The notes under the pieces are model-generated. The model was given only the letters and a program-made list of their open reading frames with translations, had not been told where the DNA came from and did no database searches. From a phage, in sequence record PZ452596.1: DNA of 64,000 nucleotides; one strand, written 5' to 3'. The translations under genes and the position numbers were made by a program. Below are positions 33,065-34,863 of the stretch, one piece after another (position 1 is the stretch's first letter; each line of letters begins with the position of its first letter).

Positions 33065-33083
<19 letters not shown>

Positions 33084-33553
33084 TCAGTGATAAAGTTATT
33101 TAAATTTTGAGTATATTTCTTTTCATCAAAAATCTTTTGCTGTCTGCGTAACCGCCATGGCATTTCAATGAACGCGCACCATATCCCAGATAATATTGCT
33201 GCTGTCAAAATATTAACAAGCATAATTAAAAGAATCCAATCTCCTATTCTGTCTATTGGATTTTTTATAAAAAAGTAAAATACGAATGATGTCACAGGAA
33301 GACTAATAATATACCACAGAATCATAATTTTATCTGTGAACCAATCAGCGTTCGTTAACTTAGCGCGACCATTATGAATACACACGAATTTATCATCTGT
33401 TATAATAGATGGCTTAGCTGCTTGATATCCCATTCTAAACTCCCTAATCAACAAATTTTTCATATCTTCGGAACAACCATTCCAGTCAACTCTATCAACT
33501 GAAATGCCATCATCCCCATCATCTAAATCATACCAGCGAGTTTTTAAAATCAT
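33065..33553 (-). CDS. membrane protein, family with conserved C-terminal motif
   Basis: 162 aa; two hydrophobic helices; ends [11 protein letters not shown]. Confidence 0.5.
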
Positions 33554-33912
33554 TTAATTTTCCTACAATCACTCACAAACTCTTCCATTGATTCTTTTTC
33601 AATATAAGACATGTAGCTATTATATTCTTTTAATTGTATTTTGTAATCTTTTTTTCTTTGCCAATTTATTTTAAAATTATCATAATGAAAATATAACATG
33701 GTACCAAAGAATGAAAATAATGAAATAATTTTAGTATAGTGAAGTTCACTCCAAACTTCTATTATATTTACTGTGCCGTCAATGTTTAAAATAAGACAGT
33801 CAATTAACAATCCAAAAAGACTACCCGCAAGAGCTGCAGCCAACGCCACAGCAAAAATTAAAAATGACTCAGGAAGCGAATATTTGACTTTATTTAGTTT
33901 TGGCTTTTGCAT
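33550..33912 (-). CDS. membrane protein, family with conserved C-terminal motif
   Basis: 120 aa; hydrophobic helices; ends EEFVSDCRKIK. Confidence 0.5.
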   Translation of the reverse strand: MQKPKLNKVKYSLPESFLIFAVALAAALAGSLFGLLIDCLILNIDGTVNIIEVWSELHYTKIISLFSFFGTMLYFHYDNFKINWQRKKDYKIQLKEYNSYMSYIEKESMEEFVSDCRKIK

Positions 33913-34286
33913 CGTGATTCCTTAACAAATTTCATAATTTCATCAAATTCATACGCAGCAAGTTTAAGCTGATGTTCCTTTTTAATCTTTTTACACTGTG
34001 CTTTCCAATCACGTACGCGTTTACGATAATGCCTTCCTTGATACCAGTATCCTACCCAATTTACAGGTACTAATAAAAATGGAACTATCATTGGAAGAAT
34101 TAGTGTTGACGCAAATATTATATTAGATTCAATATTAGTCATAACATCTATAACTATTCCAACCCCCAGTAGAATTACAAATGATACAGCTATTACAGGA
34201 CCTATTAATACATCAGTAGAAATTATCTGACGCTTTAATTCATACTTTAAGGGTTTACTTGGAAGATACATTGATGGCTTTGACAT
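33894..34286 (-). CDS. membrane protein, family with conserved C-terminal motif
   Basis: 130 aa; hydrophobic helices; ends MKFVKESRCKSQN. Confidence 0.5.
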   Translation of the reverse strand: MSKPSMYLPSKPLKYELKRQIISTDVLIGPVIAVSFVILLGVGIVIDVMTNIESNIIFASTLILPMIVPFLLVPVNWVGYWYQGRHYRKRVRDWKAQCKKIKKEHQLKLAAYEFDEIMKFVKESRCKSQN

Positions 34287-34863
34287 ATTCTCTGCATTCC
34301 TTCACAAATTTTTCTAGTAATAAATCGCTTTCAAAATTGGGATTTTCTACGAATTTATCAAAAAGATCATCAACAATAGTTAAGATATTCTTTTTACTAA
34401 GAATACGTTTATTTTCATGCTTCGTTTCAGAATCAACTATAAGAGTAAAGAAATATTTCTTTCCCTGAAATTTTACCGTAGTATCAATATAGAATAAATT
34501 TGACTTTTGTAAGTTACGTTTAAACCATGCGTCACTTAAACTATAAACGCCAAGATAATCATAATCGTCGTTTAAATAACAAACTGTCCATTCAGGAGAA
34601 ATGAAATCAGTAAATTCAACATCAAAATCACATGTTAATAAATGAATTGATTCAATACTGTTAATAAGTATTCCAGGACGTATTAAAGACTTTTTACCTC
34701 TAGAAAATCTTCCAGAAAGACTTTCATCAGTTTCATATGAAGAACCCCAATAATAATTACGCCCTTCTGCCATACGTTTAAGAGCATTTAATAATTGGTC
34801 TGGAACATCAACCTGTCTTTGGAACTCTTCAAACATTGAATTGAAATCACTTTGCATTTTCAT
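34255..34863 (-). CDS. hypothetical soluble protein with the same C-terminal motif
   Basis: 202 aa; C-terminus EKFVKECREYVKAIN. Confidence 0.5.
   Translation of the reverse strand: MKMQSDFNSMFEEFQRQVDVPDQLLNALKRMAEGRNYYWGSSYETDESLSGRFSRGKKSLIRPGILINSIESIHLLTCDFDVEFTDFISPEWTVCYLNDDYDYLGVYSLSDAWFKRNLQKSNLFYIDTTVKFQGKKYFFTLIVDSETKHENKRILSKKNILTIVDDLFDKFVENPNFESDLLLEKFVKECREYVKAINVSSK

Follow-up and report, generated by a model that had tools for sequence, protein, structure and literature searches.

A C-terminal tag shared by small membrane and soluble proteins encoded downstream of e.6 in T4-like phages

The 64,000-nucleotide stretch of DNA analysed here (the window) belongs to phage RB27, a T4-like Tequatrovirus, with 100% identity to NC_025448.1. 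Four adjacent minus-strand open reading frames, which a sequence-only reading had singled out for a common C-terminal ending, were confirmed in position and tail sequence and correspond to e.2, e.3, e.4 and e.5, as named in the RefSeq notes of RB27 (Table 1); RefSeq places the start of e.5 at the second ATG (34857). Profile matches assign e.2-e.5 to PHROG 2203, 2330, 2604 and 2607 (E-values 4e-78 to 3e-109), and full-length matches combined with synteny between e.6 and nudE place them in the T4 orthologue groups, while the Pfam family listed for e.5 is a precomputed assignment for its relatives. Searches of Pfam, NCBIfam and PDB sequences with e.2-e.6 returned nothing above cut-off, leaving the labels "sulfurtransferase" and "host specificity protein" in some GenBank records unsupported. 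A HMMER search with e.5 against 1.84 billion representatives recovered only six proteins, all from T-even phage relatives, and no distant homologue; the AlphaFold2 model of e.5, built from a 20-sequence alignment, had a mean pLDDT of 45, too poor for a fold search.

Table 1. Genes, C-terminal tags and hairpin of the e.6-nudE region of phage RB27 (window coordinates)
Feature	Coordinates	Strand	Description
e.6	34905..35498	-	197 aa, all-helical with long hairpin (predicted); candidate common partner
G+C-rich hairpin GGGGCTTCGGCCCC	34884..34899	-	Between e.6 and e.5; heads the e.5-nudE block
e.5	34255..34863	-	Soluble, 200-202 aa, Pfam PF26876 (Phage_T4_Y06P); tail LLLEKFVKECREYVKAINVSSK
e.5 tag FVKECRE	34288..34308	-	Just upstream of, and adjoining, the e.4 start codon (34286-34284)
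e.4	33894..34286	-	130 aa, predicted inner-membrane protein, two hydrophobic helices, N-in/C-in; tail EIMKFVKESRCKSQN
e.4 tag FVKESR	33912..33929	-	AAGGAA (K-E) is the e.3 Shine-Dalgarno; the following cgATGc holds the e.3 start codon
e.3	33550..33912	-	120 aa, predicted membrane protein, two hydrophobic helices, second weak; tail SMEEFVSDCRKIK
e.3 tag FVSDCRK	33559..33579	-	AGGAAA (R-K) is the e.2 Shine-Dalgarno; e.2 ATG overlaps e.3 stop (ATGA)
e.2	33065..33553	-	162 aa: predicted cytoplasmic N-terminal domain of ~75 aa, two hydrophobic helices, tagged tail
e.2 tag FITECRK	33074..33094	-	AGGAAA is the nudE Shine-Dalgarno; annotated nudE ATG (33068) overlaps e.2 stop
nudE (Nudix hydrolase)	32628..33068	-	Last gene of the overlapping block; without tag

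Hydropathy analysis bears out the earlier description of e.2, e.3 and e.4 as two-helix membrane proteins, with hydrophobic segments at 78-96 and 106-124 in e.2, 31-49 and 56-74 in e.4, and 19-37 in e.3, where the second segment (62-76) is short and weaker (mean hydropathy 1.5), its counterpart in the orthologue from TH55 being strong; e.5, soluble as had been proposed, lacks any such segment. By K+R counts and the positive-inside rule, the N- and C-termini of the three membrane proteins would lie inside and the loop outside. The tag is thereby predicted to be cytoplasmic, at the end of a basic tail after the second helix (e.2, e.3, e.4) or, in soluble e.5, at the end of the protein; the helical amphipathicity of the tails is significant for e.5 only. 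The layout of e.2-e.4, as given by hydropathy and K+R distribution, resembles that of class II holins, which are likewise small, with two membrane helices, both ends inside and a charged C-terminal tail, and the tagged genes lie close upstream of the endolysin gene e. However, the holin of T4-type phages is the unrelated T, annotated in RB27 as the canonical holin t, and the tagged genes sit in an early-type transcription unit.

The motif F[VI].[ED][CS]R occurs five times in the six-frame translation of the window, and equally five times in that of the whole 165 kb genome, compared with 1.1 +/- 1.2 matches in mononucleotide shuffles of the genome. Four of the five genome-wide matches are the C-termini of e.2-e.5, and the tag that these genes share is not due to chance. 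Their stop codons leave no doubt that the motifs are C-terminal, and the possibility that the reading-frame boundaries had been mis-set was examined and the ends found correct. Across phages, the core of the tag is Φ-x-x-F-[IV]-x-x-C-[RK], ending 0-15 residues before the stop codon. The originally proposed ending, F(V/I)x(E/D)CRK, is confirmed with two corrections: e.4 carries a degenerate variant (FVKESRC), and the acidic position is not kept in distant phages. In the e.4 lineage the Cys position is taken by S, I, V or M, and the Cys two residues after the tag in the e.4 tail derives from the overlapping e.3 ATG.

C-terminal degrons mark proteins for proteases, and a near-terminal, apparently cytoplasmic motif with nearly invariant Cys and Arg/Lys could be read by a host or phage enzyme, either as such a degron or as a site of covalent Cys or Arg modification, with phage ADP-ribosyltransferases as one possible agent (Alt, ModA and ModB are encoded by RB27). 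This reading is improbable, since I, V or M takes the place of a lost Cys, pointing to a role in packing and not in chemistry, and it would leave the linkage to e.6 described below unexplained.

The genes of the block overlap by 4-32 nt, so that tag codons often serve also to initiate translation of the next gene, as its ribosome-binding site or its start codon, a feature missed by the sequence-only reading, as was the likely share of paralogy between e.3 and e.4. Tag dipeptides that act in this way are K-E as AAGGAA, R-K as AGGAAA and R-G as GAGG. At all four RB27 junctions the next gene's Shine-Dalgarno and ATG lie within or beside the tag, and the tails contain DNA repeats with 15/16 and 21/30 matching positions. 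A programmed frameshift fusing e.5-e.4 or e.4-e.3 was considered, but the overlaps show no slippery heptamer. The repeated junctions are sites of clean whole-gene loss: e.4 is absent from JS10 and MX01 through a precise loss that left a hybrid junction. The e.3 pseudogene of L010 arose by internal deletion, not by a junction event, and e.2 is split into e.2a and e.2b in T4T.

The coincidence of junction repeats with the precise loss of e.4 is consistent with a nucleic-acid-level signal, such as an RNA structure or the boundary of a PeSL-like recombination cassette, and PeSL-mediated shuffling has been documented in T4-like phages (PMC2839356, PMC4122927). PeSL cassettes, like the e.2-e.5 junctions, have boundary repeats tied to whole-gene gain or loss, but they carry an intergenic early promoter and a stem-loop (PMC2839356, PMC4122927), whereas the tag junctions are coding and overlapping (by 4-32 nt) and contain no promoter and no hairpin or terminator; they are not PeSLs. 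The four junction RNAs fold no better than their shuffles (z-scores -1.8 to +1.1), which speaks against an RNA element, and third-codon positions vary freely. A nucleic-acid signal as the primary cause of the tag is largely refuted already and most improbable.

The same overlaps could make the motif a functionless by-product of tandem duplication, kept because the 3' end of each gene is also the translation-initiation region of the next. The tail repeats and the Shine-Dalgarno and ATG placement at the four junctions are consistent with this, as is the resemblance between e.3 and e.4, which hhalign aligns over 55 columns (probability 79%) and which both start with M-x-K-P. However, every conserved residue varies synonymously: among 42 distinct tags, Arg is encoded by all six of its codons, Phe by TTT and TTC in a ratio of 27:15, and Cys by TGT and TGC in a ratio of 22:11. 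In the e.5 proteins of RB69 and TH55 the Lys is replaced by M or A, destroying AAGGAA but leaving F, E, C and R intact. The tag is also retained where the next start codon sits 5-15 codons further on, and FIxECREY is unchanged in the e.5 proteins of TH55, JS10 and MX01 although the next gene's Shine-Dalgarno and ATG lie ~20 nt downstream. Every one of the ~40 occurrences is read in the frame of the upstream gene, and non-homologous soluble proteins carry the tag as well. Such a by-product is therefore rather unlikely, and codon and residue patterns indicate that the tag is maintained at the protein level.

Alignment of the C-termini across related phages, which had been proposed as a check, showed the motif kept in Mosigvirus, Gaprivervirus and Dhakavirus orthologues, where it is the best-conserved block among proteins sharing just 19-29% identity. 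In the e.5 alignment (overall identity 19-47%), eight of the 20 invariant columns fall within the last 17 residues, and BLASTP of RB27 against Dhakavirus e.5 aligns the 16-residue tail only. Between carrier families, phmmer found no cross-hits, and the similarity detected by hhalign is confined to the last 10-17 residues except for the pairs e.3-e.4 and e.2-L010_101. Full-length paralogy of all four genes is ruled out by these comparisons; at least the similarity between e.3 and e.4 is likely to reflect paralogy in part. The array of tag carriers evolves fast and varies in gene content, and its members, small membrane proteins as well as soluble ones, are otherwise unrelated.

In most of ~18 loci examined, the core tag recurs on unrelated soluble and two-helix membrane proteins whose genes follow directly downstream of e.6, and the tagged array begins immediately downstream of e.6 in most of the e.6-bearing T4-like phages examined. 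For 11 loci counted with the strict tag, including those of Aeromonas phages 31 and ZPAH1, Serratia X20, Yersinia fHe-Yen9-01, Klebsiella PWKp16 and EcS1, 30 of 123 ORFs downstream of e.6 were tagged, compared with none of 102 upstream (Fisher p = 2e-9). Extended tag variants occur in RB43 and POP12, while the genes beside e.6 in 92A1 carry only a divergent related motif without Phe and Cys; in both RB43 and 92A1 the gene that immediately follows e.6 has no tag. RB49, the sole e.6-negative genome in the co-occurrence test, lacks tagged genes altogether (0/615 ORFs). e.6 itself is found in more than 1,100 phage genomes and shares 73-88% identity across genera, against 19-52% for e.3-e.5 over the same range of phages. 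The adjacency to e.6 could perhaps merely reflect a recombination-prone variable region. Nevertheless, the presence of the tag on unrelated proteins beside a conserved e.6 in distant relatives suggests that it is probably a docking signal. The earlier proposal of a common partner or sorting signal is partly supported, in that it would fit with the selection on the tag, its non-homologous carriers and its recurrence beside e.6.

Short terminal peptides on unrelated, fast-evolving proteins are known from T4 itself. The capsid-targeting sequence (MKTYQEFIAE-type; IPI, IPII, IPIII, Alt) is a common sorting or binding signal on proteins encoded, like the tag carriers, in variable regions. That sequence sits at the N-terminus, is removed by the prohead protease and occurs on soluble, virion-packaged proteins, whereas the e.2-e.5 tag is C-terminal, of other sequence and mostly on predicted inner-membrane proteins; no MKTYQEFIAE-like leader is present at the N-termini of e.2-e.5 (MILKTRW, MQKPKLN, MSKPSMY, MQSDFNS). 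Two genes of the capsid-targeting type flank the cluster in the window (31528-32001 and 36467-36928). The T4 proteins gp43, gp33 and gp55 are unrelated, and each docks through a short hydrophobic C-terminal peptide on one hub, the sliding clamp. By analogy only, these peptides resemble the tag in being a common C-terminal docking peptide of unrelated phage proteins, but they differ in sequence, in their soluble replication and transcription partners and in the unclustered position of their genes.

In our preferred reading, which we hold tentatively as falling a little short of probable, the tag would be a cytoplasmic docking helix for one common partner, perhaps e.6. A short helical tag would dock otherwise unrelated carriers on this partner, for which e.6, a highly conserved protein with a predicted helical hairpin resembling PspA/Vipp1, is the likeliest candidate. 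The two-helix tagged proteins may then act as membrane anchors for e.6, while soluble e.5 may be an adaptor or a competitor.

Alternatively, the tails might bind each other, with the C-terminal helices of e.2-e.5 packing as a small hetero-oligomeric bundle that builds a single membrane complex and tethers e.5 to it without any outside partner. The hydrophobic residues at -3, 0, +1, +4 and +7 follow an a/d/e heptad pattern, adjacent and overlapping genes favour co-expression, and all the tails are predicted to be cytoplasmic. However, the members are individually dispensable, as seen in JS10 and MX01 (e.4), L010 (e.3) and T4T (e.2); a phage may have anywhere from 1 to 5 tagged genes, and the three tagged proteins of ZPAH1 are all soluble. 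We regard such a bundle as unlikely, though worth keeping in mind.

In the AlphaFold2 model of e.6 (mean pLDDT 75), a long hairpin is flanked by one helix at the N-terminus and one at the C-terminus. This predicted layout may correspond to that of the PspA family, whose members have an N-terminal helix, a long alpha1/alpha2-3 hairpin and short C-terminal helices, and the top eight Foldseek matches of the model in the PDB were all Vipp1. By sequence, e.6 does not match the PspA/IM30/Vipp1 profile: it has no Pfam match at E <= 0.1 and none in NCBIfam, and no match at E <= 10 in a PDB sequence search. For e.2, e.3 and e.4, comparison with PspC and LiaI domains gave no Pfam or NCBIfam family at cut-off, only weak, composition-driven hydrophobic matches. 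In PspA-type systems, a coiled-coil hairpin protein is recruited by the cytoplasmic tails of small membrane proteins encoded alongside it. The pairing of PspA with PspB/PspC and of LiaH with LiaI would resemble that of e.6 in that a hairpin protein, predicted in the case of e.6, is encoded beside small membrane proteins, and recruitment of e.6 might resemble the way in which PspB/PspC or LiaI bring PspA-family proteins to the membrane. A more specific and rather speculative possibility, to which we give little credence as yet, is that e.6 is a phage PspA/Vipp1/ESCRT-III-like membrane-remodelling or maintenance protein, and that the adaptor tags mimic its terminal helix (…EYINSLK) and dock on the conserved hairpin. 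The two-helix proteins would then bring e.6 to the inner membrane, and the soluble carriers would regulate it, in a viral hub-and-spoke system that controls host membrane integrity during infection.

Searches of the literature on the gene names, tag strings and phage PspA homologues turned up nothing relevant apart from the PeSL papers, and the tag appears not to have been described before. Although T4 is the best-studied phage, its genes e.2 to e.8 are among many without known function; the tag unites five or more orphan families in a single module, presumed to be functional, whose centre would be e.6. In addition, the conserved tag offers a direct experimental handle, as a 10-residue peptide bait, as a target for clean mutants and as a search rule for new members, and the case shows how overlapping genes can put a peptide signal and a ribosome-binding site into the same codons. 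If e.6 is truly PspA/Vipp1-like, a virus would here supply an ESCRT-III superfamily member in bacteria together with a dedicated set of adaptors, which would have a bearing on the way lytic phages maintain an energised host membrane up to lysis.

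At 100% identity, the window matches Enterobacteria phage RB27 (Tequatrovirus; NC_025448.1), in which e.2-e.5 are flanked by e.6 on one side and nudE/e (lysozyme) on the other. The pattern F[VI].[ED][CS]R matches five times in all six frames, in the 64 kb window and in the reassembled 165 kb genome, versus 1.1 +/- 1.2 times in shuffled genomes, and the tails of e.2-e.5 provide four of the five matches. These tails agree with the sequence-only reading, which had described a motif shared by the C-termini of four adjacent genes; the shared peptide (the tag) is real and not a product of chance. 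According to hydropathy, e.2 and e.4 have two membrane helices each, as had been claimed for three of the proteins, and e.3 has one strong helix and a short, weak one that is strong in its TH55 orthologue; e.5, described as soluble, has no hydrophobic helix. By Lys+Arg count, the segments at both termini are rich and the loops have 0-1 such residues, so both ends, and hence the tags, are cytoplasmic. The tag is thus a cytoplasmic, C-terminal, protein-level element. Among 42 distinct tags from 14 phages, numbered from Phe as 0, position -3 is aliphatic, -2 and -1 are acidic or polar, +1 is I or V, +2 is K in 25/42, +3 is variable (E in 17/42), +4 is C in 33/42 and otherwise I, V, M or S, and +5 is R or K, with 0-15 residues between tag and stop.

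Features of RB27 (upper rows) and of loci from related phages (L numbers)
Feature	Coordinates	Strand	Detail
e.2	33065-33553	minus	ORF
e.3	33550-33912	minus	ORF; tail ...EEFVSDCRKIK
e.4	33894-34286	minus	ORF; tail ...MKFVKESRCKSQN
e.5	34255-34863	minus	ORF; RefSeq start 34857; tail ...EKFVKECREYVKAINVSSK
e.6 tail	34905-34928	minus	QEYINSLK; pattern EY[IF]N[SN][LM]K-stop
e.8 tail	35962-35985	minus	EEYFNNMK; same pattern
Capsid-targeting leader, N-terminal	31528-32001	minus	MKTYQEFITEA; annotated Ip4
Capsid-targeting leader, N-terminal	36467-36928	minus	MKTYAQFLMTEA; 153 aa gene
Terminator-like hairpins	36971-36994; 36436-36459	minus	AGCCCCAGCCGAAAGGTTGGGGCT; AGCCCTAGCCGAAAGGTTGGGGCT; each then TTTTTGGTAT
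e.3 pseudogene, Mosigvirus	L010 4375-4492		internal deletion
Split e.2, T4T	L030 4546-5033		e.2a + e.2b
Extended tag, RB43	L027 5280-5897
Extended tag, POP12	L029 5128-6030
Related ending, Serratia 92A1	L028 5863-7100		three consecutive genes; …ARKRVLGDKYNPEMMYT
(G)WVSSSxxC-stop or WxxSSC-stop genes	L002 3231-4026; L014 4880-6124; L020 5567-7137; L021 5832-6391; L022 5553-6576; L028 7486-8318

The tag is kept in all orthologues sampled from Mosigvirus (RB69, L009/L010), Gaprivervirus-like (TH55, L011-L013) and Dhakavirus-like phages (JS10, MX01), despite protein identities of 19-52%. Of the 20 invariant columns of e.5, 8 fall within the last 17 residues, and the BLASTP alignment between the RB27 and Dhakavirus proteins is limited to the 16-residue tail. 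The tag codons also carry translation signals: at all four junctions those of the next gene lie inside or adjoin the tag (TTTGTGAAGGAATGCAGAGAAT-ATG in e.5, TTTGTTAAGGAATCACG-ATG in e.4, ...TGTAGGAAAATTAA-ATGA in e.3 and ...TGCAGGAAATTAAA-ATGA in e.2), with overlaps of 32 nt (e.5/e.4), 19 nt (e.4/e.3), 4 nt (e.3/e.2) and 4 nt (e.2/nudE). K-E is written AAGGAA and R-K AGGAAA, and the Cys of 'RC' in e.4 comes from the start codon of e.3, read in the frame of e.4. That the same codons serve as a ribosome-binding site is a genuine second layer. No strong promoter or terminator was found between e.5, e.4, e.3, e.2 and nudE; e.6, e.7 and e.8 each have a promoter-like site of their own, and a G+C hairpin lies between e.6 and e.5. 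A repeat finder detects repeated DNA at the tails, with identities of 15/16 and 21/30, and the RNA at the junctions has no unusual structure; a nucleic-acid signal is an extremely improbable explanation.

Duplication combined with overlapping initiation regions could in principle leave the tag purely as a by-product, which is quite unlikely: in e.5, Met (RB69) or Ala (TH55) takes the place of the K of K-E, which destroys AAGGAA and leaves F, E, C, R, E and Y as they are, and Arg is encoded by all six codons across the 42 tags. Phe (TTT:TTC 27:15), Cys (TGT:TGC 22:11) and Ile (ATT, ATC or ATA) vary likewise, and in TH55, JS10 and MX01 the next gene has a strong Shine-Dalgarno and ATG ~20 nt further downstream. 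Every occurrence uses the frame of the upstream gene, and therefore selection acts on the peptide, the tag being more than a by-product of translation signals. It is very probably a functional peptide; a degron or modification site would be a decidedly unlikely form of such function.

The genes e.2-e.5 appear to be only partly paralogous. No cross-hits between their families were obtained with phmmer, and profile-profile similarity is confined to the last 10-17 residues except for two pairs, e.3-e.4 (55 columns over the second helix and tail; probability 79%) and e.2 with a 101 aa Mosigvirus protein (63 columns; 69%). An M-x-K/R-P-x-L/M N-terminus is common to e.3 and e.4, and the tag is the sole feature that e.5 has in common with the other families. 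The tag is therefore common to non-homologous proteins. It is also located at recombination-prone junctions. JS10 and MX01 lack e.4, and their e.5 tails (…AKEVQNGAA-stop and …AKEVQNA-stop) lead straight into the start codon of e.3. In JS10 the junction gctaaagaggttcaaaATGGagcggcc is a hybrid of the TH55 e.5/e.4 (gctaaaggggttcaaaATG) and e.4/e.3 (attaaggaggttcgtaATGGaacggcc) junctions, which is what recombination between two similar junctions would be expected to leave. In one Mosigvirus contig e.3 is a pseudogene in which the tail and the ribosome-binding site of the next gene are preserved, and T4T has e.2 in two parts, so individual tagged genes are dispensable.

Beyond RB27, the tag is tightly linked to e.6, the 197 aa gene directly upstream. 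Identity of e.6 across four genera is 73-88%, well above that of the tagged proteins, and phage records number 1,107 for e.6 versus 606-666 for e.3 and e.4. Mosigvirus L010 encodes two further tagged membrane proteins, one of 101 aa (...LENFIKECRGK) and an e.2 orthologue (...ERFITECRNLR). At most of the loci inspected with a distant e.6, the next gene or genes downstream encode proteins unrelated to e.2-e.5 that end in the tag: Aeromonas phage 31 (263 aa, ...ELFVDYCRRTASKK), Klebsiella PWKp16 (189 aa, ...EEFIKHCREAVNG; 121 aa two-helix, ...AFLKEMRK; 94 aa, ...NHFIKYCRGKHVS), Serratia X20 (273 aa, ...DEFVKMCRTKHTEVNNG; 124 aa two-helix, ...EYFIKECR; 179 aa, ...SDFIKGCRK; 109 aa two-helix, ...LDFIRGIRS), Yersinia fHe-Yen9-01 (...LDFIDQCRRTLKGDYRA; ...KDFISECRGR; ...NEFVTYCRGNK), Aeromonas ZPAH1 (three soluble proteins, ...DRFIKKCRGMVK; ...ENFVRKCRDIMKVGKLYENH; ...ESFIKECRKIVS), and EcS1 and two metagenomic phages (L024, L025) with four to five tagged genes each. 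Counting gene-strand ORFs of at least 60 aa at 11 loci, F[VIL]..C[RK] (the strict tag) falls within the last 22 residues in 30/123 ORFs downstream of e.6 vs 0/102 upstream (Fisher p = 2e-9). A full scan of RB49 (Krischvirus), the negative control, found no e.6 (hmmsearch, E <= 10) and 0/615 tagged ORFs. At three loci e.6 is only 31-34% identical. RB43 and POP12 have an extended tag (…FIHSCKKNVMEKYDPSLSYTKI…; …CKVQVLGDRYDPKIQYTKI…) continuing ...C-[KR]-x-x-V-[LM]-x-[DE]-[KR]-Y-x-P-x-x-x-Y-T, and Serratia 92A1 has only an ending akin to it, ...RKRVLGDKYNPEMMYTxLV, in which the Phe and Cys of the tag are missing, no ORF at its locus matching the strict tag; the first gene after e.6 is untagged in RB43 and 92A1. 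The tag of T-even phages may correspond to the first helix of an ancestral module that was longer.

As a kind of device, shared terminal tags are known; the present tag, the gene array that carries it and the association with e.6 appear undescribed, no account of the tag or of a function for e.2-e.6 having been found in the searchable literature. Pfam coverage consists of name-only families, e.g. Phage_T4_Y06P, and no domain or profile evidence was found for the 'sulfurtransferase' (e.3/e.4) and 'host specificity protein' (e.6) of some GenBank records. Another shared terminal tag near e.2-e.5 is the T4 internal-protein capsid-targeting leader; the second leader gene is flanked by near-identical hairpins, an arrangement that resembles a PeSL-type boundary of a mobile cassette. 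The e.6-nudE region of Mosigvirus, Dhakavirus, Klebsiella, Serratia and Yersinia phages also holds 2-6 small soluble tandem genes with a second shared C-terminus in which Cys is the very last residue, a family absent from RB27.

The AlphaFold2 model of e.6 (42-sequence alignment; mean pLDDT 75) has helix 2-22 at its N-terminus, a long hairpin whose arms span 25-80 and 86-145, two short helices and, modelled with confidence, helix 186-196 at its C-terminus. In a Foldseek search of the PDB, Vipp1/IM30 takes all of the top eight places and archaeal CdvB2 comes next, with E-values of only 3e-3 to 1e-2. The conserved e.6 C-terminus is spaced like the tag (aromatic, I/L, x, x, L, K), and EY[IVLF]N.[LMIV]K occurs in 2/415 RB27 ORFs, e.6 and e.8; the e.7 tail is ...DKFIDELDEE. 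A tail-to-tail bundle is an unlikely arrangement. Of the common partner or sorting signal proposed earlier, a functional peptide on non-homologous proteins, linked to e.6, stands, and partner binding is what we infer: the tag would be a docking helix for a single common partner, a reading with close to an even chance, and e.6, the best candidate, is less likely than not to be that partner. A slowly evolving hub with fast-evolving tagged spokes would resemble the T4 capsid-targeting sequence, and clamp-binding tails follow the same pattern. In the proposed mechanism, modelled on PspA-PspB/C and LiaH-LiaI, e.6 would be tethered at the inner membrane by the two-helix proteins and modulated by the soluble tagged ones.
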